Positions 1 through 50,823 are shown, counted from the stretch's first letter. The stretch: 62,849 bases of DNA from Candidatus Giovannonibacteria bacterium RIFCSPLOWO2_12_FULL_43_11c (GCA_001780775.1 MFIO01000001.1:1-62849); one strand, 5' to 3'. Numbers and translations are program-made. Notes: generated from the letters alone by a model not told the origin.

Positions 1-1012
1 GATAGCGGATTAATTTCGATACTTTCTCAATAAACTCTTTTGGGAAGCGCAGGCGCGAGAGAATCTGATCCGACATTTTCGCCCCAACGACATCATGTCC
101 GTAGAAAGTTGAGAATTTTCCTTCTCCGCGCTTCGTGCGCGGTTTGCCGACGTCGTGAAGCAAAGCCGCCATCCGCACATCAAGCGGCCAATTTTCTTTG
201 ACCGCGTGCTCCAAGGATTTCAAATTATGCTCCCAGACAGTATATATGTGGTGCAGATTCTGCCCGACGCCCCACCCTTCAAGTAATTCAGGCATAAATT
301 CCTTCAAAAGCCCAGATTCGCGCAAAATTTCAATTCCACCGGAAGCCCCGTCTGCCATGATCAATTTCTGAAATTCGTCCCTTATTCTTTCTTTGGATAT
401 AAATTTCAAAAGGCCCGCGTTTTTATGGAGCGCATCTTTGGTCCTCTCTTCGATTGTAAAGCCGAGTTCAGCCGAAAAACGGACGGCGCGCATCAAGCGA
501 AGCGCGTCTTCTTTGAACCTTTCATCTGGATCGCCAACGGCCCTTATAGCCTTATTTTTAAGGTCCTCTTCGCCGTTAACTAAGTCTATGACTTCGGGAT
601 CCGACCCCTGGATTCTATCGGGGTCGGACCCCGATATATCCATAGCCAAAGCGTTTATGGTAAAGTCGCGGCGGCCCAGATCCTCCTGCAAATCCTTGGC
701 AAATTCGATTTTATCCGGGTGGCGCTTATCGGAATATTTGGCTTCGATTCGATACGGCGTGACCTCTATTACCGCTAGGGAAGCATCATCTGAAGAGGTT
801 TTTACACCGACCGTTCCATATTGGTTTTCGTAGAAATTATCGGGGAAAATTGCCTGAATCTCTTCCGGTTTGGCATTCGTCGTAACATCCCAATCTTTCG
901 GCTTTTTTCCACACACAAAATCCCTGACGCATCCGCCGACCAGATATGCTTCAAAATTATTCTCCCGAAGTTTTTTAACAACCTCGAGAACTTCATTGGG
1001 AATCTGCTTCAT
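1..1012 (-). CDS. cca: CCA-adding tRNA nucleotidyltransferase (N-terminal 337 codons; gene runs off the left edge)
   Basis: Manual minus-strand translation from the ATG at 1012 gives MKQIPNEVLEVVKKLRENNFEAYLVGGCVRD...GRRDFTINALAMD...RLMRAVRF...LLHDVGKP, i.e. a nucleotidyltransferase head plus HD domain. It is absent from the ORF track because no stop lies inside the window. The listed + ORF 393..833 is its antisense shadow. Confidence 0.85.
   Translation of the reverse strand, partial: MKQIPNEVLEVVKKLRENNFEAYLVGGCVRDFVCGKKPKDWDVTTNAKPEEIQAIFPDNFYENQYGTVGVKTSSDDASLAVIEVTPYRIEAKYSDKRHPDKIEFAKDLQEDLGRRDFTINALAMDISGSDPDRIQGSDPEVIDLVNGEEDLKNKAIRAVGDPDERFKEDALRLMRAVRFSAELGFTIEERTKDALHKNAGLLKFISKERIRDEFQKLIMADGASGGIEILRESGLLKEFMPELLEGWGVGQNLHHIYTVWEHNLKSLEHAVKENWPLDVRMAALLHDVGKPRTKRGEGKFSTFYGHDVVGAKMSDQILSRLRFPKEFIEKVSKLIRY
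596..632. repeat. Palindromic element, GGGGTCSGACCCC variant, in frame inside cca
   Basis: The sequence is GGGATCCGACCCC-tggattctatc-GGGGTCGGACCCC. It is translated on the minus strand as ...SGSDPDRIQGSDPE..., between the conserved RDFTINALAMD and IDLVNGEEDL blocks. Confidence 0.7.
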
Positions 1013-4756: not shown

Positions 4757-5692
4757 CTATTTTCGCCTTTTGCCGTGGAATGCCTTATGAATTTCGCGCA
4801 GTGATTTATCTGTGACGTGCGTGTAGACTTGGGTCGTTGAGATGTTGGAATGGCCCAAAAGCGCCTGAACTGATCGCAAATCTGCGCCATTTATAAGCAA
4901 ATCTGTCGCGAACATGTGTCGCAAAACGTGCGGAGTCACTTTTTTCGAAATTCCAGCTTTAATCGCGTAGTATTTCAAAATTCTTTCGATTGAGCGGGAG
5001 GTTAATCTGGAGGTTTCTTTAGAATTTATCCCATAGCTGACAAACATCGCCTCAGCCATATCCCGTCTTTTATCTAAATATTCCTTGATTGCTTTTTTCG
5101 CGGAAGGGGAGAGAAAAACAACCCGGACTTTCTCTCCTTTCCCGCGGACTGAAAATTCATCCTTAGACAAATCAACCGAATCGCGGTCGAGTGAAGTCAA
5201 TTCCGAGACGCGAAGGCCGGTTGAGAATAGAAGTTCCAAAATCGCGCGGTCGCGGAGAACCCTTAAGTTTCCGAAGTTCGACTTCGGAGAGCCTTGAAGT
5301 CGAACTTCTTGGGGCGCCCTTAAAAGCCGCTCCAGCTCTTCTATAGTAATTAAATCCAAATCGCGCTCGGGAGCTTTCGCGAGCAAAATTCTTTCAGGCG
5401 AGAGCGACTCAATGCCGCGCCAAGCGAGATACTTTAAGAAATTCCTAAGCGCGATCAAGTGATAATTCTGGGTGCGCTTTTTTAGGCCTTTGCGATTCAA
5501 ATATAGGCGGTATTTCCGGACGAGTTCGTCATCTATTCCGGAAATCGAAGAAATCTTCGCAAAATCAAAAAATCTCTTAAGATAGCAGTCGTAATTCTCG
5601 ACTGTCTTAAGAGAGCGCCCGCGCTCGATCTCGAGATATTCCAAATATTGCCGATGAAATTCTTTTAAGCTCATATAAGTATTGTGCGACAT
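4757..5692 (-). CDS. XerC/XerD-family tyrosine recombinase
   Basis: 311 aa with an N-terminal core-binding domain. The catalytic blocks are ELLFSTGLRVSEL, HVLRHMFATDLL and LLGHSNISTTQVYTHV. It carries one palindromic element in frame. Confidence 0.85.
   Translation of the reverse strand: MSHNTYMSLKEFHRQYLEYLEIERGRSLKTVENYDCYLKRFFDFAKISSISGIDDELVRKYRLYLNRKGLKKRTQNYHLIALRNFLKYLAWRGIESLSPERILLAKAPERDLDLITIEELERLLRAPQEVRLQGSPKSNFGNLRVLRDRAILELLFSTGLRVSELTSLDRDSVDLSKDEFSVRGKGEKVRVVFLSPSAKKAIKEYLDKRRDMAEAMFVSYGINSKETSRLTSRSIERILKYYAIKAGISKKVTPHVLRHMFATDLLINGADLRSVQALLGHSNISTTQVYTHVTDKSLREIHKAFHGKRRK
5273..5308. repeat. GAAGTYCGACTTC palindromic element copy (in the xer gene)
   Basis: GAAGTTCGACTTC-ggagagcctt-GAAGTCGAACTTC, read on the minus strand as EVRLQGSPKSNFG, just upstream of the conserved RDRAILELLFSTGLRVSEL. 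Confidence 0.9.
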
Positions 5693-10808: not shown

Positions 10809-12334
10809 GCGCTACTAAGACACATTCGGCTGAAATTTTAGGCCTAGGAGGAGAAATTATTGATGTTGAAGTTGATCTCTCCCCAGGCCTTTTTCATTTC
10901 TCCATTGTAGGACTTCCCGACAAAGCCGTGGAGGAAGCCAAAGAAAGAGTTTCCTCGGCGATAAAAAATACCGGTTTGCGCCATCCTCAAAAAAAGAACC
11001 AGAGGGTTGTGGTATCGCTCGCTCCAGCGGACCTGAAAAAAGAAGGTCCGCTTTTTGATCTAGCGATAGCTATTGGTTATCTCATGGCATCGAAACAGAT
11101 CGAGTTTGATTCTTCTAAAAAACTATTCTTGGGGGAACTCGCCCTAGACGGATCTTTGCGGAAAATTAAAGGGGCGCTTTCGCTTGTGATGGCGGCGAAG
11201 GAAGCCGGGTTTGAAGAAATAATTTTGCCGAAAGAAAACGCACCAGAGGCAAGTCTAGTAGATGGAATTTGCACATATGGAATGAGAAACCTGTCTCAAG
11301 TTCTGAAATATCTAAGAGGAGAAGAGAAAATCGAACCCCATGCTAAAATCGAGATAGAAAATGAAAATTTGTACTCGCTCGACTTCGGAGAAATTAAAGG
11401 ACAGGAGACGGCAAAGCGTGGGTTAGCGCTAGCCGCGGCTGGGGCGCATCACGTGCTGATGGTCGGGCCTCCGGGAACAGGCAAAACCATGCTTGCCCGC
11501 GCTCTTCCTTCCATTCTTCCACCAATGAGTTTTGAAGAAATTTTGGAAGTTACTAAAATTCATTCTGTTTCCGGAAATCTGAAAAAGCCTTATGTATCAG
11601 AGCGTCCGTTCAGAAATCCTCACCATACCGCATCATATGTCGCGCTCGTCGGCGGGGGACAAACCCCAAGACCCGGCGAAATCACTCTCGCACATCGAGG
11701 CGTTTTGTTTTTGGATGAGTTTCCGGAATTCGAAAGAAGAGTTTTGGAAGCGCTACGACAGCCGTTAGAGGACGGCGAGATAACAGTGTCGCGGGCAAAA
11801 GGAACGATAACTTTCCCTGCAAGATCTCTTACGGTATTCGCGATGAACCCGTGCCCTTGTGGGAATTATGGATCGGATAAAAAGCCTTGCCTCTGCACCA
11901 CGCAGACTTTGTACCGTTATCAAAGAAAGGTTTCTGGACCAATCGCGGACAGAATCGATATCTGGCTTGAGGTGCCGCATTTTGAACATGAAAAAATGAG
12001 CCTTAAATCCAAGCAGGAAAGCGATGCTCTGCGAAAACAGGTTATTCAAGCGAGAGAAATCCAAAATAAAAGATTCGTAAAACGCGACATTTCTTTGAAT
12101 TCACATATGCGTCCAAAAGATCTCGAAGAATTTGCGCCATTGTCTTCCGAGACGCAAGAAATAATGCATACGGCAGCGAAAAAACTGGACCTATCCGCCC
12201 GCGCCTACCACCGCGTCATCAAGCTCGCCCGCACTATCGCGGATTTCGAAGGCGCGCGTGACATCAAAAAAGAACATATTTTAGAAGCCATCCAATACCG
12301 CCCCCGCAAAAACTTTTTCGTCTACGAAACGTAA
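10805..12334 (+). CDS. comM: YifB/ComM-family Mg-chelatase-like ATPase
   Basis: It has a Lon-protease-like N-terminal domain, Walker A GPPGTGKT, Walker B VLFLDEFPEF and a C-terminal ...AYHRVIKLARTIAD... block. The start was moved to the ATG at 10805. Confidence 0.9.
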   Translation: MSATKTHSAEILGLGGEIIDVEVDLSPGLFHFSIVGLPDKAVEEAKERVSSAIKNTGLRHPQKKNQRVVVSLAPADLKKEGPLFDLAIAIGYLMASKQIEFDSSKKLFLGELALDGSLRKIKGALSLVMAAKEAGFEEIILPKENAPEASLVDGICTYGMRNLSQVLKYLRGEEKIEPHAKIEIENENLYSLDFGEIKGQETAKRGLALAAAGAHHVLMVGPPGTGKTMLARALPSILPPMSFEEILEVTKIHSVSGNLKKPYVSERPFRNPHHTASYVALVGGGQTPRPGEITLAHRGVLFLDEFPEFERRVLEALRQPLEDGEITVSRAKGTITFPARSLTVFAMNPCPCGNYGSDKKPCLCTTQTLYRYQRKVSGPIADRIDIWLEVPHFEHEKMSLKSKQESDALRKQVIQAREIQNKRFVKRDISLNSHMRPKDLEEFAPLSSETQEIMHTAAKKLDLSARAYHRVIKLARTIADFEGARDIKKEHILEAIQYRPRKNFFVYET

Positions 12335-13366: not shown

Positions 13367-13630
13367 AGAGAAAAAAACGCGCTTGGCTTTGATTAAAATA
13401 TTGTTTTGGTTTGAAGTCTAATTAAAAGATAGCAACCACGACCATCAATTTAGAATAAAAAATCTGAAGCTATCTTGTTAATATTTTACAATTTAAAAGA
13501 GAGCGGGTCAATGATTTTTCCCAGATTTTATCCCCAGCAAAAATAAGAAATATTTTAGAAAAAAATGTCAAAAACCCTTATTTTATAAGTAAAAATTGGA
13601 GAACTCTTTCTTGCATGTTATCTTGAATTG

Positions 13631-15559
13631 ATGTCTAAAAAATATGACACTTTTACCCCTAATCAATCGCAGAAGGAAGCAATATTGACACAATCCGGAC
13701 CGGTATTGATAGTTGCCGGGGCCGGATCAGGTAAAACGATGGTTTTGACTCATCGCATCTCACATCTAATTGAATGGGGAGTCAAGTCCGATTCAATTTT
13801 GGCAATAACTTTCACAAATAAGGCCGCGGACGAGATGAAAAACCGCGTTTTTTCCCTGCTTCGAGAAAAACAGGGCTTTTCGTCTCCGTGGATCGGCACA
13901 TTCCACAGTTTTTGCGTATTTATATTGAGAAGCTCCGGAGGAGCTATCGGGATCAATAAAAACTTCTCCATTTTGGATGAGGAAGACAGTCTTTCCGTGA
14001 TTAAAGAAATTATGAAAGAATTCTCCCTTGATCCTAAGAAATTCGAACCAAGAAAAATCCGAAATATAATATCGAGAAGAAAAAATGAGATGCAGAACCC
14101 GAAGTCCGACTTCGGAGAGCCCTTGAAGTCGGACTTCGGGAGAATGCTATTCGAAATTTGGAGAAAATACGAGGAGAGGCTCCTGAAAATGAAAGCTTTG
14201 GATTTTGACGATCTATTGCTGAAAACGGTCGTACTTTTCACCAAGCATCCGGACATTCTCCGTGATTGGCAGGAAAAATTTAAATATGTCCATGTTGACG
14301 AATATCAGGATACGAATTTAGTCCAGTATCACTTGGTTAAATTGCTCGCGGAAAAATATCGAAACATATGCGTCGTCGGAGATATAGATCAGGCGATATA
14401 TTCCTGGCGCGGGGCGGATTTCAGGAATATTCTACATTTTGAGCGCGACTGGCCAGACGCGAAAATAATCACACTTGAAGAAAATTATCGTTCGACAAAA
14501 CTTATTTTGGACGCGGCAAATGCTATAATCGTAAAAAATAAAGCACGATTACCAAAAAATCTTTACTCGAAAAAAATGTCCGGGCCAAAAATTACGCTTT
14601 TCGAAGGCGCAAACGAGGAGGAGGAAGCGAAGTTGATATCAGAAATGTCGAGAGAGATGATCCGCGGAGGAATAAATCCTAGGGACATCGCGGTTTTATA
14701 CCGAACAAATTTTCAATCGAGGATTATCGAAGAAAAAATGCTTGCTGAAAACATTTCTTATCAGGTCATCGGGGTAAAATTTTACGAGCGCAAAGAAATT
14801 AAAGACACGCTCGCGTATTTAAAAGTGTCGTTGAATAGAGAAGATATGCTGTCGCTCAAAAGAATCATCAACTTTCCGCCGAGAGGAATTGGGAAAGTTC
14901 TTTTGGCAAAAATTCTTGGCGGCCTGCCTGCGCAGGCAGACGCAGAGTTAAACTTAAAAGAGAATGCGAAGAAAGACGAACTTTTTAGACTTTTGGATGA
15001 AATAAAGGAAAATCTGGAAACAGAGAAAGCAAATGAAGCGATAAAACTCGTGATAAAAAAATCTGGCCTTGAGAATTATTTCGACGATGGAACCGAAGAA
15101 GGAGAAATTAGACTTTCCAATATTCGAGAGCTTGTCACGCTTGCTAAAAGGTATGATATTTTTAATCCACCTGAAGGAATATTGAAACTTTTGGAAGACG
15201 CCGCGCTTATGTCCGACCAGGACACTATAAAAAAAGAAGAAAATTCCGTTAAGCTTATGACGGTGCATGCGGCAAAAGGACTTGAATTTAAAGTGGTTTT
15301 TGTCGCCGGGCTTGAGGAGGGGCTTTTTCCTCACGCGGGCTTGGACGCCGCCCGCCTCGATGACGAATCGAGGCAGGAAGAAGAACGCCGGCTTTTTTAT
15401 GTCGCACTCACGCGGGCGAAGGAAAAAATTTTTCTCTCATACGCTATTTTTAGGACGATATTCGGCGAGAGAAGAATAAATATGCCGTCGAAATTTATTT
15501 CAGATATCCCTGAGGACCTGCTCGAACACGGGGATGAAGCCGTTATAATATTGGAATAA
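13631..15559 (+). CDS. UvrD/PcrA-family ATP-dependent DNA helicase
   Basis: Motifs AGAGSGKT, VDEYQDTN, TVHAAKGLEF and YVALTRAK. The start was set to the ATG at 13631. It carries a palindromic element and a 16-nt GC palindrome in frame. Confidence 0.9.
   Translation: MSKKYDTFTPNQSQKEAILTQSGPVLIVAGAGSGKTMVLTHRISHLIEWGVKSDSILAITFTNKAADEMKNRVFSLLREKQGFSSPWIGTFHSFCVFILRSSGGAIGINKNFSILDEEDSLSVIKEIMKEFSLDPKKFEPRKIRNIISRRKNEMQNPKSDFGEPLKSDFGRMLFEIWRKYEERLLKMKALDFDDLLLKTVVLFTKHPDILRDWQEKFKYVHVDEYQDTNLVQYHLVKLLAEKYRNICVVGDIDQAIYSWRGADFRNILHFERDWPDAKIITLEENYRSTKLILDAANAIIVKNKARLPKNLYSKKMSGPKITLFEGANEEEEAKLISEMSREMIRGGINPRDIAVLYRTNFQSRIIEEKMLAENISYQVIGVKFYERKEIKDTLAYLKVSLNREDMLSLKRIINFPPRGIGKVLLAKILGGLPAQADAELNLKENAKKDELFRLLDEIKENLETEKANEAIKLVIKKSGLENYFDDGTEEGEIRLSNIRELVTLAKRYDIFNPPEGILKLLEDAALMSDQDTIKKEENSVKLMTVHAAKGLEFKVVFVAGLEEGLFPHAGLDAARLDDESRQEEERRLFYVALTRAKEKIFLSYAIFRTIFGERRINMPSKFISDIPEDLLEHGDEAVIILE
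14101..14137. repeat. GAAGTYCGACTTC palindromic element copy (in the uvrD-like gene)
   Basis: cccGAAGTCCGACTTC-ggagagccctt-GAAGTCGGACTTCggg, giving a potential 16-bp stem. It is translated as PKSDFGEPLKSDFG. Confidence 0.9.
14924..14939. repeat. 16-nt perfect GC-rich palindrome CTGCCTGCGCAGGCAG in the helicase gene
   Basis: Read directly from the sequence. It is translated as ...LPAQADA... Confidence 0.6.
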
Positions 15560-15572
15560 GAAATTAAGAATT

Positions 15573-16355
15573 ATGATAAAAAAATATCTGGGACAAAATT
15601 TTCTCAAAAATAAAAAAATCTTGGACGAAATTGTCCGCATTGGCGAAGTTTCAAAAGAGGATACCGTTTTGGAAGTCGGCCCCGGGCACGGAGAATTAAC
15701 TGAACTCTTGGCAAAGATGGCTAAGAAGGTTATTGCAGTTGAGAAAGATAAAGATTTAATTCCTCTTCTCCGAGAAAAATTTTCCTCAAACAAGAGAGTG
15801 AAAATAATTCATGAAGATATTCTTGAATTTGAAAATTTAAAATTACAAATTACAAATTACAAAATCGTCGCAAATATTCCCTACTACATCACTTCGCGCT
15901 TTTTACGCACCTATTTGTCCGATACTCGGTGTCGGCCATTGATGATCGTCCTTACGGTCCAATACGAGGTCGCAAAAAGAATTTCGGCGAAGCCTCCGGA
16001 TATGAACCTCCTTGCTTTGTCAGCACAGGCATATGGAAAAGTTGAATTCGTCCGAAAAGTCTCTCGGGGAAATTTCAGCCCGGCCCCGAAAGTTGATTCC
16101 GCGATAATAAAAATTTCAGAAATATCGGATAAATTTTTCAGAAAAAATAGGGTCAAGGAAAAGAAGTTTTTTGAAATTCTGCGCCAAGCTTTCCAGCAAA
16201 AGCGCAAAATGCTCCGTCATTCTTTATCCCCGAAGTTCGACTTCAAGGAACTCCGAAGTCGAACTTCGGAAAACTTCGGAACAAAACGGCCGGAGGAACT
16301 TTCGCTCGAAGATTGGGTAAAACTTTCGGAATCTATTGAGATCCGACCTCGATAG
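15573..16355 (+). CDS. rsmA: 16S rRNA (adenine1518/1519-N6)-dimethyltransferase
   Basis: Motifs LGQNFL, VLEVGPGHGELT and ANIPYYITS. It carries a 7-bp microsatellite and a palindromic element in frame. Confidence 0.9.
   Translation: MIKKYLGQNFLKNKKILDEIVRIGEVSKEDTVLEVGPGHGELTELLAKMAKKVIAVEKDKDLIPLLREKFSSNKRVKIIHEDILEFENLKLQITNYKIVANIPYYITSRFLRTYLSDTRCRPLMIVLTVQYEVAKRISAKPPDMNLLALSAQAYGKVEFVRKVSRGNFSPAPKVDSAIIKISEISDKFFRKNRVKEKKFFEILRQAFQQKRKMLRHSLSPKFDFKELRSRTSENFGTKRPEELSLEDWVKLSESIEIRPR
15840..15863 (+). repeat. (AAATTAC)x3 heptanucleotide microsatellite inside rsmA
   Basis: aaattac aaattac aaattac aaa. The 21 nt of the three units keep the frame and are read as ...LQITNYK... Confidence 0.8.
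16232..16267. repeat. GAAGTYCGACTTC palindromic element copy (in rsmA)
   Basis: GAAGTTCGACTTC-aaggaactcc-GAAGTCGAACTTC, read as PKFDFKELRSRTSE near the C-terminus. Confidence 0.9.
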
Positions 16356-28513: not shown

Positions 28514-29725
28514 ATGCAAGAATTTATCACAACCAAAAGAATAATAATCGCACTCGCTATTTTATTCGTGTTGTTTTTCGCGTCGGGGGCGATTTGGTAT
28601 TATTTTATCCGGGGTAATAGTTCGATAAATAATAATTCTAATCAGCCGGAACCGACTCCGATCGAAAATCCGTTCCCGGAAGGCGGCGGGAGAGAGCCCG
28701 TGAATGGCGGAAGTAGTTCGTCGAGTGGCGGATCGGATCTTGGGTCAGTCCCCCAAAACCTGAACGCATCGCAGGGCGACTCTACGCAGATCGTTCCCGA
28801 CGCGGTCGCCGGAGCTGTTTTCTATAAAAATAGGGTCCGCTACGTCGAAAAGTCTTCCGGAAATATTTTTGAGATTGATTTAGACGGGAAAAACAAAACC
28901 AATCTCTCTAATAATAAAATCTCTGGGGTTTTTGACGCTGTATGGTCCAAACAAGGGACGCGGGCAATAATCAAATACGCTTCGGGGGATAAAATTTTTA
29001 CCGTCTCCGCGGCGATTACAGGATCTACGACAAAGACAACGATTTTGCCTTCCGGGGTCAAAGACGCTGCTTTCTCACCAAAAGGAGACCGGATCGCCTA
29101 TGTACTCGTTTCGGGAGACAGTGCTTCCGTTATAACCGCGACTCCGGAAAATAAAAACCAGGCGACGCGCCTTAAAATGAAATATTCATCCTGGAAAATT
29201 TTATGGGCGGAGGATAATGGCATTTATCTTCTGTCCTCTCCTTCGGCGTATCTGGATGGATTTCTATATAAAATAACCTTATCTTCCGGGGCTTTCTCTA
29301 AAATACTCGGCCCTTATCCAGGCCTCCTCGCATCCGTTAATACCCCCAGCCTAATTTTCTCCGAGACAAATCAAAAGGAAAAAACTATCAATACATTTCT
29401 TGCTAATTCCTCCGGAGGGAATATAGGTCCTCTTCCGATAAAAGCTATGCCGGAAAAATGCGCCTGGTCGAAAAAGGTCAAGGATGTCGTATTTTGCGCG
29501 GCTCCTCTGATCATGCCGGGGGCTATTTATCCCGACGATTGGTATATGGGGAAAGTATCTTTTGGAGATGCTGTCGTAAAAATAAACATAGCCTCGCGGG
29601 CGATAATCTCTTTCTTGCTGCCGAAGGCGATCGACACAACTAAACTTTTCCTCTCCGACGACGAAACAAACTTGTTTTTTATAAATAAGACAGACGAATC
29701 GCTTTGGAGATTGAGGCTGCCCTGA
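28514..29725 (+). CDS. N-terminally anchored beta-propeller (TolB/PD40-like) protein
   Basis: 403 aa with an N-terminal TM and a Gly/Ser/Asn linker. It has repeated beta-strand units, e.g. AAFSPKGDRIAYVLVSGD. The stop codon is formed at the junction with a palindromic element. Confidence 0.6.
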   Translation: MQEFITTKRIIIALAILFVLFFASGAIWYYFIRGNSSINNNSNQPEPTPIENPFPEGGGREPVNGGSSSSSGGSDLGSVPQNLNASQGDSTQIVPDAVAGAVFYKNRVRYVEKSSGNIFEIDLDGKNKTNLSNNKISGVFDAVWSKQGTRAIIKYASGDKIFTVSAAITGSTTKTTILPSGVKDAAFSPKGDRIAYVLVSGDSASVITATPENKNQATRLKMKYSSWKILWAEDNGIYLLSSPSAYLDGFLYKITLSSGAFSKILGPYPGLLASVNTPSLIFSETNQKEKTINTFLANSSGGNIGPLPIKAMPEKCAWSKKVKDVVFCAAPLIMPGAIYPDDWYMGKVSFGDAVVKINIASRAIISFLLPKAIDTTKLFLSDDETNLFFINKTDESLWRLRLP

Positions 29726-29759
29726 AGTCCGACTTCAGAGTGCCCCGAAGTCGGACTTC
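29724..29759. repeat. GAAGTYCGACTTC palindromic element copy, intergenic (possible bidirectional terminator)
   Basis: ctGAAGTCCGACTTC-agagtgcccc-GAAGTCGGACTTCag fills the whole 37-nt gap between convergent genes and overlaps the TGA at 29723-29725. Confidence 0.9.
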
Positions 29760-29762
29760 AGC

Positions 29763-30224
29763 CTAGTTCACGCCGAAAGGCTTTATCACAACCTTTCTAT
29801 TCGGTTCCTCCCCGATTGACTTGGTTGTTATGTCCGGGTATTCAGTTAGAATCGCATGAACTATTCTTCTTTCGTACGAACTCATCGGCCGCAATTGTAT
29901 TTCTTTTTTGAAATATCTGACGCGTTGAGCGGATAGTCTCGCCAAATCTTTTATTTCTTCCGCTCTTTGTTTTTGATAATCGTTCACGTCGATTGAAAAG
30001 GGAAACGATACTTTTCCCAACTTAGCCTCCGTTATTCTTTTCAATAGATGATTTAGCGCTATTAGATTTTCTCCTCCTTCTCCTATTAAAAGTCCCGCTT
30101 CTTGCGTTCTTATTTGAAATTGAGTGTTGTCTGCCGTTTCAAATATAGAAACACCGCCAAAAACTCCTATTTTAGCCAAAAGCTCTTCAATTATTTCCTT
30201 TATTTTTTCCTTCTCCTGATCCAT
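29763..30224 (-). CDS. jag: Jag/KhpB-like RNA-binding protein (KH + R3H)
   Basis: 153 aa with GLLIGEGGENLIALNHLL (KH-like) and SYERRIVHAIL (R3H). It lies downstream of yidC. Confidence 0.8.
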   Translation of the reverse strand: MDQEKEKIKEIIEELLAKIGVFGGVSIFETADNTQFQIRTQEAGLLIGEGGENLIALNHLLKRITEAKLGKVSFPFSIDVNDYQKQRAEEIKDLARLSAQRVRYFKKEIQLRPMSSYERRIVHAILTEYPDITTKSIGEEPNRKVVIKPFGVN

Positions 30225-43243: not shown

Positions 43244-43270
43244 ATAGAAAATTTGACAGTAGGAGGTTAT

Positions 43271-43744
43271 ATGAAAAAAGGGATGTTTTTTGGATTGGTG
43301 GCGGTTTTGCTAGCAGCAGGGTTCTCGGCGGAGGTTTTTGCCGGTGGCGGACATCGTGGCGGCAGCAACCCCGGCTGGCACGGTAATCGCGGTCGTGTGG
43401 TTGTTGTTCAGCGGCGTGGCGGAAACAGTGGTCTGCGAGATCTCGGAATCCTCGGATTGGGGGTCGGTGGAGGAATTCTCCTCGACCGATATGTTCTGCG
43501 ACCGGATCCGTACTATCCGATTTACGGACCTACTGCTCGACCAGTTTATGGCCCGGCTTATCCACGAGCTTACGGCTCTCGCTACGATCTCCCCTCATGT
43601 GCCGACCTCCCTACGGATGTTGAGCAAGATCGCTGTGAGAAAGCTCAACAACGGGCAGCCGAGCGCGAGCAAGAGAGAATCGTTCGCGAGAGACTCCGTA
43701 ACGCAGAGCGCCTCGGCGAGGAGCTAGGGCGCAGCCGCTACTGA
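43271..43744 (+). CDS. Hypothetical secreted Gly/Arg/Pro/Tyr-rich protein (GC-rich gene)
   Basis: Signal peptide MKKGMFFGLVAVLLAAGFSAEVFA, then GGGHRGGSNPGWHGNRGR... and a charged helical C-terminus. Strong Shine-Dalgarno. A 100-nt hand count (43321-43420) gives about 66% GC. Confidence 0.6.
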   Translation: MKKGMFFGLVAVLLAAGFSAEVFAGGGHRGGSNPGWHGNRGRVVVVQRRGGNSGLRDLGILGLGVGGGILLDRYVLRPDPYYPIYGPTARPVYGPAYPRAYGSRYDLPSCADLPTDVEQDRCEKAQQRAAEREQERIVRERLRNAERLGEELGRSRY

Positions 43745-43794
43745 ACCACCCCACGTTCTTTTCCCACCAAAATTCGCACATTCGTGCACAACTT

Positions 43795-43830
43795 CGGCGC
43801 TAGGATTCCTCATCCGGCGCCGTTTTTATT
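43795..43830 (+). terminator. Rho-independent terminator
   Basis: CGGCGC-ta-GGAT-tcctc-ATCC-g-GCGCCG followed by TTTTTATTT. Confidence 0.65.
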
Positions 43831-43847
43831 TATGCTAAACTTTTAAT

Positions 43848-44318
43848 ATGAAAGAGGCGCTTCGGGCTATAACTAAGAACGCTAAACAAACGGAAAAATT
43901 TGCAGAGGCGTTTGCGAGAGAAGTTTTAAGACTAAAAACTAAGCGCGCGATTTTAATTGGGCTAGAGGGGGAACTTGGCGCGGGGAAGACGACTTTCGCG
44001 AAGGGATTTGCGCGAGGGCTCGGGATCAAAGAGGAGATGAAAAGCCCGACTTTTATTTTGATGCGTGTTTTTCGAAGTTCGACTCCGACGTTTCGTCGGA
44101 GTCGAACTTCGTGGGAGCGTTTTTTTCATATCGACGCCTATCGCGATCAGATTGATTTTAGAGAATATCTAAAGAGCAAAAAAAATATTTTACTTGTTGA
44201 ATGGTCCGATAAAGCAAAAAAATTTCTTCCTAAAAATTATTTCAGGTTTGTTTTAAGAAGTCCGACTTCAAAGACACCCCGAAGTCGGACTTCGAGAGAG
44301 ATAAAGTTTTATGTCTAA
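43848..44318 (+). CDS. tsaE: tRNA t6A37 biosynthesis ATPase TsaE
   Basis: P-loop LEGELGAGKTTFAKG, then SPTF...HIDAYR. The gene is interrupted in frame by two palindromic elements. Confidence 0.8.
   Translation: MKEALRAITKNAKQTEKFAEAFAREVLRLKTKRAILIGLEGELGAGKTTFAKGFARGLGIKEEMKSPTFILMRVFRSSTPTFRRSRTSWERFFHIDAYRDQIDFREYLKSKKNILLVEWSDKAKKFLPKNYFRFVLRSPTSKTPRSRTSREIKFYV
44073..44111. repeat. Palindromic element copy (tsaE copy 1), perfect 18-bp arms
   Basis: CGAAGTTCGACTCCGACG-ttt-CGTCGGAGTCGAACTTCG is 39 nt and is read as RSSTPTFRRSRTS. Its half-sites differ from the consensus by a compensatory pair (CTTC->CTCC with GAAG->GGAG). Confidence 0.9.
44257..44293. repeat. GAAGTYCGACTTC palindromic element copy (tsaE copy 2)
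   Basis: GAAGTCCGACTTC-aaagacacccc-GAAGTCGGACTTC, read as RSPTSKTPRSRTSR near the C-terminus. Confidence 0.9.
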
Positions 44319-46917
44319 AGAGTTAAAACGTTTAGTTCTTCTCGACATGCACGCAATCCTGCACCGCTCTTTTCACGCGCTCCCGGCCTTCTCGTCTCCT
44401 AAAGGCGAGCCGACCGGCGCCTTGTACGGTTTTGTAACTTTTTTACTGAAAGCAATTCGCGAACTAAAACCGGATTACATCGCGGCGGCATACGATCTTC
44501 CCGAACCGACATTCAGGCATGTCGCATATGATAAATATAAAGGACAGAGGCCGGAGCTTGCGTCGGACTTAGCGATGCAGATAAAAAGGTCGTATGATAT
44601 TTTAAACGCCTTGGGGATTAAATTTTTCGAACACACAAAATTTGAAGCAGATGATATTATAGGAACTTTGGCTGAGAAGACGAAAATTATTAAAGATTTA
44701 GAAACAATAATTGCCTCTGGGGATATGGATACGCTGCAGCTTGTGGAGGGCGCGAAGGTTAGAGTCTTTACTCTTCGAAAAGGAATCAACGATACTGTTA
44801 TCTATGACGAGGAGAAAGTCCTGGAGAGATTTGGTTTCGGACCGGAACTCCTGGCGGACTATAAGGGGCTTCGCGGAGACCCATCGGATAATATTCCGGG
44901 AATCCCCGGCATTGGGGAGAAGGGGGCCACAGAGTTGATCTTGAAATTCGGTAACCTTGAGAAAATTTTTAAAGCGATAAAAAAAGATAGAGAAGCAGTA
45001 ATCAAAAAAGGCATTAAAGAGAGAACAGTTAAGCTTCTCGAAGAGCACGAAGAGGAGGCGCTTTTTTCGCGCGAGCTTGGGTTAATAAGAAGAGATGTTC
45101 CGATTGAGTTCGATCTCGAAAATTTAAAATGGAAAAACGGATACGACAATGAAAAAGTCATAGACCTTTTTAAAGAACTTGGTTTCATGTCGCTTTTATC
45201 GAAGCTTTCCTCCTTCACTGAAGTTCCTGCCTCGCCGGCAGGCGGGTCGGAGGACAAGCCCGCCGAAGCCGTTACTGATGCAAGTTCAGATTTTCTAGAA
45301 AAAGAAAATAAGATCTTTTGGCACGAATCGGATGGTAAAATTTACGCGGCGTCCGGCGCCGGAAAGGTTTTCTCTTTTGATGCGGATGATAAGAAATTAC
45401 AGGAACTTTTCTTATCTAAAAAGGAGCATTATTTTTTTGACGCGAAGAAAATAGCACATGCTCTAGGAGTCGGGGAATGTCCCAAGATTGCGTGCGATAT
45501 CAAAATAGCCGCGTGGCTATCGCGCCCGACTCTAGAGAGCCCTGGAATTTTTTCGACAGTGCATAATTTTCTGCCGAAAGAGACTGTAAGAGAAGGCGAA
45601 GTTACAAAAGCCGTTTCATTGCTTCCTAAGTTAGCCTCTGTTTTGGAAAAAGAGATGCGGGATAAAAAGTTAACGCGCGTTTGGGAAGAGATTGAATTAC
45701 TTCTAACCCCAGTTATCTATACCATGGAAAGAACTGGAATTTTAATTGATTTGGAATTTCTGGAAAAATTTTCGCGCGAGACCGAGAGAAAACTCCAAAA
45801 ACTGAGGGAGAAAATTTGGAAAATCTGCGGCACGGAGTTTAACATAAATTCTCCCAAACAATTGTCCGAAGTTCTTTTTGAGAAAATGAAGCTCACGGCC
45901 AAAGGATTGAAAAAAACCGGAACCGGCGCCAAATCCACCCGCGAGTCAGAGCTCCTAAAATTAAAAGGGACACATCCAGTTATTGAGGAATTGCTTTCTT
46001 ATCGCGAGCTCGCAAAACTTAAATCAACATATCTCGATACGCTTCCTAAAATGGCGGATGCGAAAGGAAGGGTCCATACGACTTACGACCAAGCGGGGAC
46101 GGCCACTGGGCGTCTTTCTTCATCCGATCCGAATTTGCAGAATATACCGATACGCTCGGAAGCCGGGAGAGAAGTTCGAAGGGCGTTCTTGGCGCGCTCT
46201 GGATTCGAACTGGTCGCGTTTGATTATTCCCAAATTGAACTTCGCATAGCGGCGATTCTTTCCGGAGATAAGAAAATGATCCGAGCGTTTAATGAAGGAA
46301 AGGATATCCATACCGCAACTGCGGTAGAAATTTTCAACGTCAAAGAAAACGAGGTTACGGATAATATGAGAAGGGAGGCCAAAGTCGTTAATTTTGGAAT
46401 TCTTTATGGCATGGGGGTTAATGCTCTTTCGCAAGCGCTCGAGGTTTCTAGGGAAAAAGCTCAGGAATTTTGGGAAGAATATTTTCGCGATTTTGACGGC
46501 GTTTATAAATTTCTCGAGGAGACAAAAAGAAAAGCGCGCGAGAAAGGTTATGTCGAAACACTTTTCGGGCGCAGGCGCTATCTGCCGGAAATTTATTCAC
46601 AAGCTGAATACATCAGAAAAGAGGCGGAGCGCATGGCGACTAATGCTCCCATACAGGGAACGGCCGCCGATATAGTCAAGCTCGGCATGATTCGGTCGCA
46701 AGATTTCATCGATAAAAATTTAACAGGCAAGGCCTTTCAGCTTCTGCAAATACACGATGAGCTCTTATTCGAAATTAGTAAAGCAGACGTCAATTATTTT
46801 ATCAAAGGAATCAAGAAAATTCTGGAAGAAATATATAAGGGTGATGTTATCCTCAAGGTTGAGGCGAAAGTCGGTCCGAATTGGGGGGAAATGAAGAAAT
46901 ATGATATCCTAAAATAA
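44311..46917 (+). CDS. polA: DNA polymerase I
   Basis: 868 aa with a 5'-3' exonuclease N-terminus (GDPSDNIPGIPGIGEKGA). Polymerase motifs are DYSQIELR, RREAKVVNFGILYG and QIHDELLFE. Confidence 0.95.
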   Translation: MSKELKRLVLLDMHAILHRSFHALPAFSSPKGEPTGALYGFVTFLLKAIRELKPDYIAAAYDLPEPTFRHVAYDKYKGQRPELASDLAMQIKRSYDILNALGIKFFEHTKFEADDIIGTLAEKTKIIKDLETIIASGDMDTLQLVEGAKVRVFTLRKGINDTVIYDEEKVLERFGFGPELLADYKGLRGDPSDNIPGIPGIGEKGATELILKFGNLEKIFKAIKKDREAVIKKGIKERTVKLLEEHEEEALFSRELGLIRRDVPIEFDLENLKWKNGYDNEKVIDLFKELGFMSLLSKLSSFTEVPASPAGGSEDKPAEAVTDASSDFLEKENKIFWHESDGKIYAASGAGKVFSFDADDKKLQELFLSKKEHYFFDAKKIAHALGVGECPKIACDIKIAAWLSRPTLESPGIFSTVHNFLPKETVREGEVTKAVSLLPKLASVLEKEMRDKKLTRVWEEIELLLTPVIYTMERTGILIDLEFLEKFSRETERKLQKLREKIWKICGTEFNINSPKQLSEVLFEKMKLTAKGLKKTGTGAKSTRESELLKLKGTHPVIEELLSYRELAKLKSTYLDTLPKMADAKGRVHTTYDQAGTATGRLSSSDPNLQNIPIRSEAGREVRRAFLARSGFELVAFDYSQIELRIAAILSGDKKMIRAFNEGKDIHTATAVEIFNVKENEVTDNMRREAKVVNFGILYGMGVNALSQALEVSREKAQEFWEEYFRDFDGVYKFLEETKRKAREKGYVETLFGRRRYLPEIYSQAEYIRKEAERMATNAPIQGTAADIVKLGMIRSQDFIDKNLTGKAFQLLQIHDELLFEISKADVNYFIKGIKKILEEIYKGDVILKVEAKVGPNWGEMKKYDILK
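45226..45264. repeat. Two GC-rich hairpins in the polA interdomain linker
   Basis: CCTGCC-tcgcc-GGCAGG (45226-45242) overlaps GGCGGG-N12-CCCGCC (45241-45264). The region is read as PASPAGGSEDKPAE. Confidence 0.5.
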
Positions 46918-48792: not shown

Positions 48793-50823
48793 TTATGCCA
48801 GAGTTTTTAGTACGTCCCGGTATTTCGCGGCTTTTTCGAATTCAAGGTTCGAGGCGGCCTCGAGCATCATTTTCTCCAAATCTTTTTTCGCGGAAACACG
48901 GTCCTTTTTGGAAAGCTTTTCCATCTCTTTCGAGATATCAGAAGTTTTTTTAATTTCTTCGAATATGGATGGGCGGATTTCTTTTTTAATCTGCCTCGGC
49001 GTGATGCCATGCTCGCGGTTGAAATTCTCTTGATATTCTCTACGGCGTTTGGTTTCATCAACCGTAAATTGCATAGATTCGGTCATAACATCTCCGTATA
49101 AAGTCGCGCGGCCGTTGATATGGCGCGCCGCGCGCCCGACGGTCTGGATCAAACTCGTTTTGTTTCGTAAAAACCCCTCTTTATCCGCGTCCAAGATTAA
49201 GATAAGCGCGACCTCCGGCAGGTCGAGCCCCTCTCTTAGAAGGTTTATCCCGACTAAAACATCAAATTCTCCCCTGCGAAGGCGGCGCAAAATATCCGTC
49301 CGCGCCAGAGTCTTTATCTCTGAATGAAGATATTCCGCGCGGATATTTTTTTCTTTAAGGTAATCCGATATTTCTTCAGCCATTCTCTTCGTCAGTGTCA
49401 GGAGCAAAACGCGCTCTTTGACTTTAACTGCTTTAATTATCTCTTCTTCTGCGTTTTTAATTTGTTCTCTTGCGGGCCTGATTTTGATTATCGGATCCAG
49501 TAACCCCGTCGGGCGGACGAGTTGTTCAATAACCCCTGAACCGAAGTTCGACTTCAAGGTGCCCCGAAGTCGAACTTCGGTAGATTTAGCAATTTCATAC
49601 GGCCCGGGTGTGGCCGATACGAATATCGCCTGCCCGACTTTTTTTTCAAACTCCTCGAATTTTAGCGGGCGGTTGTCTAGCGCCGAGGGTAGGCGAAATC
49701 CGTATTCGACAAGCGTTTTTTTACGCGCCTGATCCCCGAAATACATCCCTTTTATCTGCGGGACCGACATATGCGATTCATCAACAAAAAATAGTGTATC
49801 TTTTGGCAGATAATCAATCAATGTATAAGGAGGGGAGCCGGGCTTTCGCGCCGAGAGGTGTCGAGAATAATTCTCGATCCCGGAACAATACCCAACGTTT
49901 TTTAGCATTTCTAAATCAAACCGCGTCCTTTGCTCGATTCTCTCGGCTTCGAGCAATTTCCCTTCCTTTTTTAACTCGCGGACCCTCGTCTCCAACTCTT
50001 TTTTTATATTTTTCATTGCCCGTTCGATTTTTTCCCTTGGCGTAACGAAATGTTTTGCCGGGAAGATTTTTACCTCGCTCGGAAAAACAAGCTCCTTAAC
50101 ACCGGGTGTTTGAATCTCCCCAACACCCGGTGTTTTCCTGCCCGTTGGGGAAAGCGAGGTTATTCTTTCGATTTCGTCTCCGAAAAATTCAACGCGCGTA
50201 ATAGTCTCTCCGTCTGGGGAAGCTATATCGATTACGTCCCCTTTAACGGAATAAGTTCCTGCTCTTAAGTCAAAGTCTCCGCGTTCGTATTGGATGTCCG
50301 CCAAATCGCACAAAAACTTTTGCCGCCCTATCCGCAAGCCAATTTTTAATTCGACCGACATCGCGCCGTACTCCTCCGGATCGCCTACGCCATAAATGCA
50401 GGAGACCGAGGCAACGATTATAAAGTCTCTCCGTGTGAGCGCGGACTGGGTTGCCGAATGGCGCAGGCGGTCTATGAATTCATTTATTTTGGCATCTTTT
50501 TCTATATAAGTGTCAGTCACTGGCAGATACGCCTCCGGCTGGTAATAATCATAGTAAGAAACGAAATAATGGACGGCATTTTCCGGAAAAAATTCTTTGA
50601 ATTCCTGATACAATTGCGCGGCGAGAGTTTTATTATGCGAAATAATCAAAGCCGGCCGCCCAATTTCAGCAATCGTATGCGCCATCGTGAGTGTTTTCCC
50701 GGATCCAGTCACGCCAAGCAAAGTCTGGAATCTTTTTTTTGCGCGAATCCCCGCGACCAATTTCTTTATCGCCTCCGGCTGATCACCAGCTGGTTTCAAT
50801 AAATTTTTGTTCGAAAAATTCAT
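48793..50823 (-). CDS. uvrB: Excinuclease ABC subunit B
   Basis: 676 aa with [22 protein letters not shown] and a C-terminal UVR motif [11 protein letters not shown]. One palindromic element lies in frame. Confidence 0.95.
49543..49578. repeat. GAAGTYCGACTTC palindromic element copy (in uvrB)
   Basis: ccGAAGTTCGACTTC-aaggtgcccc-GAAGTCGAACTTCgg is read on the minus strand as [13 protein letters not shown], directly before the conserved [14 protein letters not shown]. Confidence 0.9.

Follow-up and report, generated by a model that had tools for sequence, protein, structure and literature searches.

Two short insertions in a single housekeeping gene, each able to fold back on itself, raise the question of what these sequences are and what keeps their arms matched. 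The gene is tsaE of Candidatus Giovannonibacteria bacterium RIFCSPLOWO2_12_FULL_43_11c, and it lies in a stretch of 62,849 nucleotides (GCA_001780775.1 MFIO01000001.1:1-62849; hereafter the window), which corresponds to C1:1-62849 of a genome (G000) of 796,513 bases on 35 contigs. In the first insertion a T-to-C change in the left arm is matched by an A-to-G change in the right arm; the initial annotation took this as a compensatory event and proposed that the hairpin is maintained at the DNA or RNA level or is regenerated from a template. Our results show that both insertions are REPIN-like doublets (repetitive extragenic palindromic (REP) doublets forming hairpins), being inverted pairs of a 13-nt REP hairpin, GAAGTYCGACTTC, and that this REP family is linked to a gene resembling those for REP-associated tyrosine transposases (RAYTs). 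We consider it probable that the arms of these doublets are kept matching by a family-wide homogenisation at the DNA level, for which the hairpin itself would serve as template.

43848-44318, plus strand: tsaE (t6A ATPase subunit), the host gene, 156 amino acids; single-copy, intact and under purifying selection.
44073-44111, plus strand: copy 1 of the element, at tsaE site 1; P-type doublet, palindromic throughout, encoding RSSTPTFRRSRTS.
44257-44293, plus strand: copy 2 of the element, at tsaE site 2; canonical long doublet (arms of 13 nt, spacer of 11 nt), encoding RSPTSKTPRSRTS.

Copy 1 reads CGAAGTTCGACTCCGACG-TTT-CGTCGGAGTCGAACTTCG and forms an 18-bp stem without mismatch around a 3-nt loop, confirming that its spacer has become self-complementary. 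It can be broken down as GAAG-TTCGAC-TCCGAC-G-TTT-C-GTCGGA-GTCGAA-CTTC, and its folding energy as single-stranded DNA is -23.4 kcal/mol (z = -8.0). Copy 2, GAAGTCCGACTTC-AAAGACACCCC-GAAGTCGGACTTC, has complementary 13-nt arms and a folding energy of -13.9 kcal/mol (z = -6.7). Measured against the T-type arm GAAGTTCGACTTC/GAAGTCGAACTTC, which is found elsewhere in the window, the left arm of copy 1 carries T12>C and its right arm A2>G at the pairing position, so the half-sites had been described accurately. The presence of two insertions in a 156-codon tsaE was likewise borne out, and their share comes to 16% (76 of 468 coding bases), against about 17% as first stated. The 13-mer is not confined to tsaE: at up to 2 mismatches it has 26 matches in the window against 1.5 expected, a number that none of 100 shuffles reached.

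Across the genome, the REP core GAAGT-YCG-ACTTC occurs as two inverted copies parted by a 5-12-nt spacer. Doublets were counted in the form GAAG[TC][CT][CG][GA][AG]CTTC, a 6-12-nt spacer and the reverse complement; there are 20, and 19 of them have perfectly complementary arms. Half-sites number 45, compared with 2 for the reversed control. Two layouts are seen, a long one (ccGAAGTYCGACTTC-N9-12-GAAGTCGRACTTCgg) and a short one (gGAAG...CTTCc-N4-gGAAG...CTTCc), and in both every arm is by itself a small hairpin, GAAGT-NNN-ACTTC.

The same REP flanks a transposase gene on another contig.

G000:C15:11904-12596, minus strand: RAYT-like gene for a Y1/HUH tyrosine transposase, flanked by the same REP as the tsaE inserts.

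At this gene the REP takes the form TACCGAAGTCSGACTTCGGTA, which is the tsaE half-site with a longer stem, and stands upstream of the open reading frame (ORF), in frame within it and downstream of it (positions 11868, 12397 in the ORF, and 12616); the internal copy lies N-terminal of the HUH motif. The C15 protein scores 33.6 bits against Pfam Y1_Tnp, for which the cut-off is 23, and HYH and YYIHLNP motifs can be recognised by eye. Judged by its sequence, it is only distantly related to curated RAYTs. Among ten genomes of the family, an orthologue (59-87% identity) is present in G000, G001, G002, G004 and G007 and absent from G003, G005, G006, G008 and G009. The five genomes that carry it hold 16-45 half-sites against 2-7 for the reversed control, whereas the five that lack it are at background (1-9 against 2-6). 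REP abundance therefore tracks the RAYT orthologue, being raised in 5/5 genomes with the gene and 0/5 without it, and the REP-flanked layout recurs in G001, G002, G004 and G007.

The association extends beyond the family. The exact core CGAAGTYCGACTTCG is found in 37 of 251 genomes of the class, in 30 genera, while the reversed control gives 2 matches in all. REPs bracket a homologue of the C15 protein (29-50% identity) in seven of the nine clusters fetched from other families; these seven come from seven genomes in five other families of the class, and five of them repeat the arrangement of upstream, internal and downstream REPs. The outer REP stem varies between genomes and yet stays paired (taac/gtta, ttac/gtaa, cctc/gagg, tatc/gata). 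Mobilisation or cleavage of the REPINs by this RAYT-like protein is a putative activity, suggested only indirectly by presence and absence and by subtype differences at orthologous sites.

The genome holds seven Y1_Tnp genes in all (contigs C4, C8, C15, C20, C25, C26 and C28). As tnpA-REP/RAYT genes are reported to prevail in larger genomes (PMC6006769), seven RAYT-like genes in 0.8 Mb are unusual. Five of the seven have a palindrome of their own nearby, among them TGTTGAACAT.. on C25, CACTTAGGTGTC.. on C26 and TTGGTAGC.. on C8; the gene on C4 has only one inside its ORF, and a search near the C20 gene found none. The paralogous RAYT on C8 is associated with GGTAGC...GCTACC, and the C28 gene is flanked by GGAAGCCGAGCTTCC, an arm of the short GAAGC subtype (GAAGCCGAGCTTC).

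We then asked how faithfully the arms match. An alignment of the arms and three flanking bases was built from 51 doublets in five genomes, and in 47 of these the arms are perfectly complementary. Changes on both sides are seen in 10 of the 13 arm pairs of the long hairpin. Compensated cells outnumber one-sided or unpaired ones by 42 to 10, and none of 500 shuffles reaches the covariation score; the many uncompensated mismatches that would speak against a maintained hairpin are not seen. In the single REP hairpin, arm positions 6-8 make up the loop; between the two arms they show strict covariation (CG:35/UA:11; CG:37/GC:8; GC:39/AU:5). Since these positions are unpaired inside their own arm, the covariation runs from arm to arm and not merely within each REP. 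Each of eight distinct arm variants is found together with its exact complement, and no doublet (0/51) is heterozygous at the T/C pair. Independent hot-spot mutation of both arms, for instance by deamination of a loop C, is unlikely on its own, given that none of the 51 doublets is intermediate at that pair.

The copies in the window other than those in tsaE, to which no strand is assigned, are the following.

594-634: diverged copy, GGGATCCGACCCC / GGGGTCGGACCCC, within the CCA-adding enzyme gene (2-1012, minus strand).
5273-5308: T-type copy within a XerC-like integrase gene (4757-5692, minus strand).
14098-14140: C-type canonical copy within a uvrD-like helicase gene (13628-15559, plus strand).
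16230-16269: T-type copy within rsmA/ksgA (15573-16355, plus strand).
29722-29761: C-type copy, the sole copy outside long ORFs, with convergent ORFs on either side (28514-29725, plus strand; 29763-30224, minus strand).
49540-49581: T-type copy within uvrB (48793-50823, minus strand).

Ten sites could be followed between genomes, with orthology established by flank alignment. Symmetric pair switches number at least 19 there, and asymmetric states 7. One explanation would be turnover alone, in which old copies are replaced whole, by transposition or by gene conversion from symmetric masters, with no copying from arm to arm. Several observations fit such a process. The whole interior differs at several orthologous sites: long spacers alternate with short ones at tsaE site 1, xerC and cca, and the P-type alternates with the canonical form at uvrD and both tsaE sites; at xerC, for example, G001 has a C-type copy with a flipped centre and G002 a short one. 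Arm flavour is also specific to the genome, since five sites are T:A here and C:G in G001, G004 or G007; the uvrB copy is C-type, with one mismatch, in G004. However, at no fewer than six orthologous sites a locus-specific spacer is kept while both arms switch, and wholesale replacement would have changed the spacer too. The spacer CAAGGG at C8:25366 is retained in three genera and CAAGTG is retained at C25:333, and further cases are xerC (this genome compared with G001) and cca (G001 compared with G002). Because these spacers are retained, the arms must have changed in place, and the absence of doublets heterozygous at the T/C position adds to the case against turnover alone. We therefore reject the idea that symmetric variants come solely from the replacement of entire elements, and regard an account built on turnover only as unlikely.

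The strength of the covariation and the symmetric switches, seen although synonymous sites of tsaE are near saturation between these genomes, indicate that complementarity is actively kept. Such a pattern needs either rapid copying between arms or strong selection for complementarity. At the cca copy (594-634), the A:T pairs at arm positions 2, 3, 11 and 12 are all G:C, with one mismatch in addition, while G001, G002 and G007 have canonical orthologues. The AT>GC change is thus a concerted one inside a single element.

The two tsaE sites themselves differ among relatives.

tsaE site 1, this genome: P-type, T-flavoured arms.
tsaE site 1, G001: canonical, one uncompensated mismatch.
tsaE site 1, G007: short type, perfect.
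tsaE site 1, G004: single REP.
tsaE site 1, G002 (same genus), G009 and G005: empty.
tsaE site 2, this genome and G002: occupied in both, with the same arms and 35/37 nt identical overall (dS 0.96).
tsaE site 2, G004: two uncompensated mismatches.
tsaE site 2, G001: P-type with a decayed left arm.
tsaE site 2, G007, G008 and G009: no recognisable element.

The comparison of sister genomes suggested by the initial annotation thus revealed presence/absence polymorphism, and the most decayed copies in relatives are those in tsaE. Insertion boundaries and target duplications are not definable from the empty site 1 of G002 and G009, because codons of the adjoining loop differ there and synonymous change has reached saturation. 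The single REP of G004 has counterparts at G000:C1:70442 and C21:3511, where a sister genome likewise has the full doublet. Deletion between the near-identical arms would keep the reading frame, since the arm-to-arm distance is 24 nt with an 11-nt spacer.

These sites also bear on the idea that the hairpins are functional mRNA structures, such as stabilisers, RNase targets or translational pause sites, with pairing upheld by selection acting on every host gene. Such structures would explain the high predicted stability of the hairpins, the strong covariation and the conservation of the arms at orthologous sites despite saturated synonymous positions. In contrast, copies lie in both orientations and all frames, one of them intergenic; the same REP flanks transposase genes; and presence follows the RAYT orthologue, not the hosts. 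Furthermore, tsaE site 1 is empty in G002, G009 and G005, the tsaE copies of G001 and G004 carry 1-4 unrepaired mismatches, and an Rfam scan of 43600-44600 gave only generic hairpin matches below threshold and none above it. We consider mRNA structures a distinctly improbable explanation. Thus, of the possibilities raised at the outset, a DNA process templated by the hairpin is the best fit, and nothing supports selection on a hairpin in tsaE mRNA.

REP and REPIN elements are extragenic by definition. In this genome 19 of the 20 doublets lie inside long ORFs, in frame; each of the three frames and either orientation is represented, and all 19 keep the host frame without an in-frame stop. The hosts in the window are the XerC-like integrase, UvrD, RsmA, TsaE (twice) and UvrB; elsewhere they are UvrC, ArgRS, a class-V aminotransferase (NifS-like), DinB, ProRS, TrmD, a glycosyltransferase, IF-2, DnaX and MnmA. 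Pfam domains run across the insert in most hosts. Two further copies lie in a 1167-aa ORF on C8, which was outside the Pfam scan and was identified by eye as IleRS. Long ORFs cover 91% of the genome, so that an intragenic share of 19/20 is close to random placement and the elements are simply not kept out of genes. The elements are poor in stops: on average 5.25 of their six frames are open, where random or shuffled sequence has 3.7-3.8. Five or more frames are open in 19 of 20, compared with an expected share of about 25%. A count by eye of the orientation of long-type copies relative to the host gene (8 against 3) was not significant.

Could the encoded peptide be what is selected? Under this explanation, Arg/Ser/Thr/Pro-rich loops would be favoured at the protein level and the palindrome would be a by-product. 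Both tsaE copies are indeed read in one frame (RS.T...RSRTS), and the loops are kept in several genera. Hosts differ, however, in the frame (three) and orientation (two) in which they read this DNA, so that it yields unrelated peptides (EVRLQG.., PKSDFK.., RSPTS..); it is the nucleotides that are conserved, largely including synonymous positions and whatever the frame, not the peptide, and the loops are modelled with low confidence. Selection for the loops is very improbable as the cause of the pattern. Still harder to credit is an account in which the message loses the elements or the ribosome skips them, as with yeast mitochondrial byp elements or T4 gene 60. A stable hairpin within a coding region is what such elements share with those described here, but bypassed or excised sequences need be neither in frame nor free of stops, as all 19 intragenic copies are, and the varying lengths (31-38 nt between arm ends) leave no fixed unit to excise.

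The tsaE gene appears to have tolerated both inserts. The ORF at 43848-44318 matches Pfam PF02367 (2.6e-26) and NCBIfam TIGR00150 (83.4 bits; cut-off 60.1), and it is the only tsaE match in the genome. Compared with the congeners G001 and G002, its core has a dN/dS (ratio of nonsynonymous to synonymous divergence) of 0.035-0.054, with dS of 0.96-2.1, so that synonymous sites are near saturation. The Walker A motif GxxGxGKT (G41-T48), SPTF (S66-F69) and HxDxYR (H94, D96, R99) are all invariant in an alignment with 19 relatives. An AlphaFold model has a mean pLDDT (predicted local distance difference test score) of 85.4, with the core strands and helices complete and low confidence only at the inserts (below 50 at residues 81-86, within insert 1). 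Since the gene is single-copy, evolves at low dN/dS, scores above the family cut-off, keeps its motifs and has a complete modelled core, we conclude that tsaE is intact; it is neither a pseudogene nor backed by a second copy. In the model, strands 72-76 and 91-96 enclose insert 1, and insert 2 occupies the turn of the last beta-hairpin, formed by strands 132-137 and 150-155. Both inserts are therefore predicted to sit at the tips of beta-hairpins and at a distance from Walker A, SPTF and HxDxYR, the motifs that the initial annotation had proposed to examine by modelling. When compared with 1HTW, the H. influenzae YjeE structure, TsaE has 10 additional residues inserted at site 1. The conservation of frame suggests that the inserts are presumably translated as additional surface loops. 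The partner gene tsaD is also present in the genome (C32:4782-5669).

Copy 1 prompted the original proposal, and here the evidence leads elsewhere. Its interior, CYCC-GACRTTNYGTC-GGRG, recurs at two loci of G001.

P-type copy, G001 uvrD site: GAAGTCCGACTCC-GACATTATGTC-GGAGTCGGACTTC.
P-type copy, G001 tsaE site 2: GAGATCCAACCCC-GACGTTGCGTC-GGGGTCGGACTTC.
P-type copy, this genome, tsaE site 1: GAAGTTCGACTCC-GACGTTTCGTC-GGAGTCGAACTTC.

At each of these three sites, the other genome of the pair holds the canonical type. A private double substitution arising in situ in copy 1 is thereby ruled out, and the T>C/A>G change together with the self-complementary spacer is not the private compensatory event it had been taken for. 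Instead, the double change would be the signature of an interior that was restructured or replaced, and not of point substitutions that selection on tsaE had fixed. One possible reading of the P-type is GAAG-(TYCGAC)(YCCGAC)-R-TTN-Y-(GTCGGR)(GTCGRA)-CTTC, in which the arm hexamer is repeated, and the REP upstream of the G001 RAYT gene is also GAAGTCCGACTCC. A propagating multi-copy subfamily was considered and rejected, as ten genomes of the family or order hold only three P-type copies and metagenomes add look-alikes only. The metagenome scan returned the G001 uvrD locus again and six stand-alone palindromes, CGACYCCGAC-RTTAY-GTCGGRGTCG. These palindromes (contigs L122-L126 and L128) share the design of the copy 1 interior in unrelated, mostly terminator-like contexts; T-runs follow some of them, and another position seen once is the 3' end of an ORF of 390 aa.

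Together the results lead us to favour a templated process acting on DNA, because a function at the level of the host is unlikely: either orientation is used, occurrence goes with the RAYT gene and not with the hosts, relatives have empty sites, and old copies decay. In such a process, a change in one arm would be copied onto the other. Candidate routes are template switching within the element (quasipalindrome correction), gene conversion or repair between the arms of an extruded hairpin, and possibly RAYT processing that rebuilds a symmetric REPIN from an asymmetric intermediate. In copy 1, restructuring or replacement of the interior may have produced the fully palindromic subtype. Template switching at quasipalindromes, known from E. 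coli and phage T4, perfects imperfect inverted repeats and may extend a palindrome in one event; it gives rise to apparent compensatory multiple substitutions without selection. For REPIN hairpins, compensatory changes are reported to be common, and a symmetric REPIN would have to be re-established after a putative asymmetric transposition intermediate (Bertels and Rainey, PMC3116915).

A number of observations weigh against RAYT-linked, hairpin-templated homogenisation. The C15 protein reaches only 35.8 bits against NCBIfam REP_Tyr_transpos, below the cut-off of 80, and a PDB sequence search with it returned nothing at E up to 0.1. Where classical REPs have a GT[AG]G tag, this family has GAAG...CTTC with a variable outer stem. 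Some old copies decay (tsaE site 2 in G001 and in G004), and homogenisation is thus not universal. Selection for complementarity is a formal alternative to copying. Taking these points into account, we still regard DNA-level homogenisation of a RAYT-linked REPIN-like family as the probable explanation; the copying step is deduced from patterns in aligned sequences.

More tentatively, and with considerable doubt, we hypothesize that the in-frame sites are long-lived landing pads, where a RAYT-like enzyme, as a domesticated HUH nuclease acting on extruded hairpins, would rewrite the REP arms symmetrically in place. This would amount to an element-specific homogenisation, with concerted evolution of dozens of short sequences in housekeeping genes across Parcubacteria.

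Other palindromes were seen alongside this family. In uvrB, a second, unrelated doublet of like architecture, AACACCGGGTGTT-N11-AACACCCGGTGTT, lies at 50098-50134 of the window, with more copies at C20:28028 and C25:13826. The tsaD gene holds two palindromic doublets of another REP family, at C32:4904-4937 (AGAGGCTAAGCTACC-AAAT-GGTAGCTTAGCCTCT) and 5297-5330, and their arms resemble the GGTAGC...GCTACC REP flanking the C8 RAYT-like gene. The motif CTCCGACCTTGCGTCGGAG occurs at C5:10885-10899, twice within 90 nt (the second imperfect), and again at C14:41695-41709; it is also found three times in G001 and once in G003, and does not lie within a tRNA. Upstream of tsaE, an ORF of 163 aa (window 43253-43744) has a signal-like N-terminus and a body rich in Gly, Arg, Pro and Tyr.

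Within the literature collection searched, full-text queries found no paper joining REP, REPIN or RAYT with Patescibacteria or Parcubacteria. The present study describes a REP/RAYT system that lies almost wholly within essential genes of one of the smallest bacterial genomes and whose core is conserved across many families of the class. It indicates that core enzymes (TsaE, tRNA synthetases, repair proteins, IF-2) tolerate loop insertions, and it carries a warning for annotation, as "extra loops" in proteins of the candidate phyla radiation (CPR) can be mobile DNA. With fixed orthologous sites, saturated neutral divergence and at least 19 symmetric switches, the family also offers a natural system for studying how inverted repeats stay complementary. 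What is added to earlier knowledge is the symmetric switching of arms in place at orthologous sites and the assignment of copy 1 to a recurrent, fully palindromic subtype.

The closest known counterpart is the REP/REPIN-RAYT system of P. fluorescens SBW25 (PMC3116915), together with the REPs and bacterial interspersed mosaic elements (BIMEs) of E. coli and their TnpA-REP. Like these, the present family has a genome-wide palindromic REP, inverted doublets that fold as a long hairpin, a Y1/HUH gene flanked by its own REPs, co-occurrence and joint inheritance of REP and RAYT, and compensatory hairpin changes. It differs in that the elements are much smaller (31-46 nt), lie nearly all in frame within protein-coding genes instead of being extragenic, and carry GAAG/CTTC in place of GT[AG]G; their host, a CPR bacterium, has a 0.8-Mb genome, and the protein is far from proteobacterial RAYTs. 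Four features of REP/REPIN-RAYT systems are thus present (repeated palindrome, inverted doublets, REP-flanked gene and co-occurrence), while the extragenic location and the GT[AG]G tag are not. The general pathway of quasipalindrome template switching differs in another respect, being a replication error that is not specific to an element.

Quentin et al. (2018, PMC6006769) describe in-frame REPs within tnpA-REP genes and mention reports of REPs in unrelated genes, where loops may accommodate them. The TnpA-Y1 subclass 2.4 of that study also has REPs flanking the transposase gene and in frame inside it; the study deals mainly with Cyanobacteria and Bacteroidetes and with the transposase gene, whereas the family described here resides mostly in essential CPR housekeeping genes. 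Rickettsia palindromic elements (PMC10969869) are 100-150 bp long, lack a transposase and are confined to Rickettsia, in contrast to the 31-46-nt elements of this genome, which are unrelated to them in sequence and have a cognate RAYT-like gene. The two nevertheless share a way of life, as selfish palindromes in frame in essential genes of a reduced genome, read through, presumably so in the present family, as peptide in tolerated positions.

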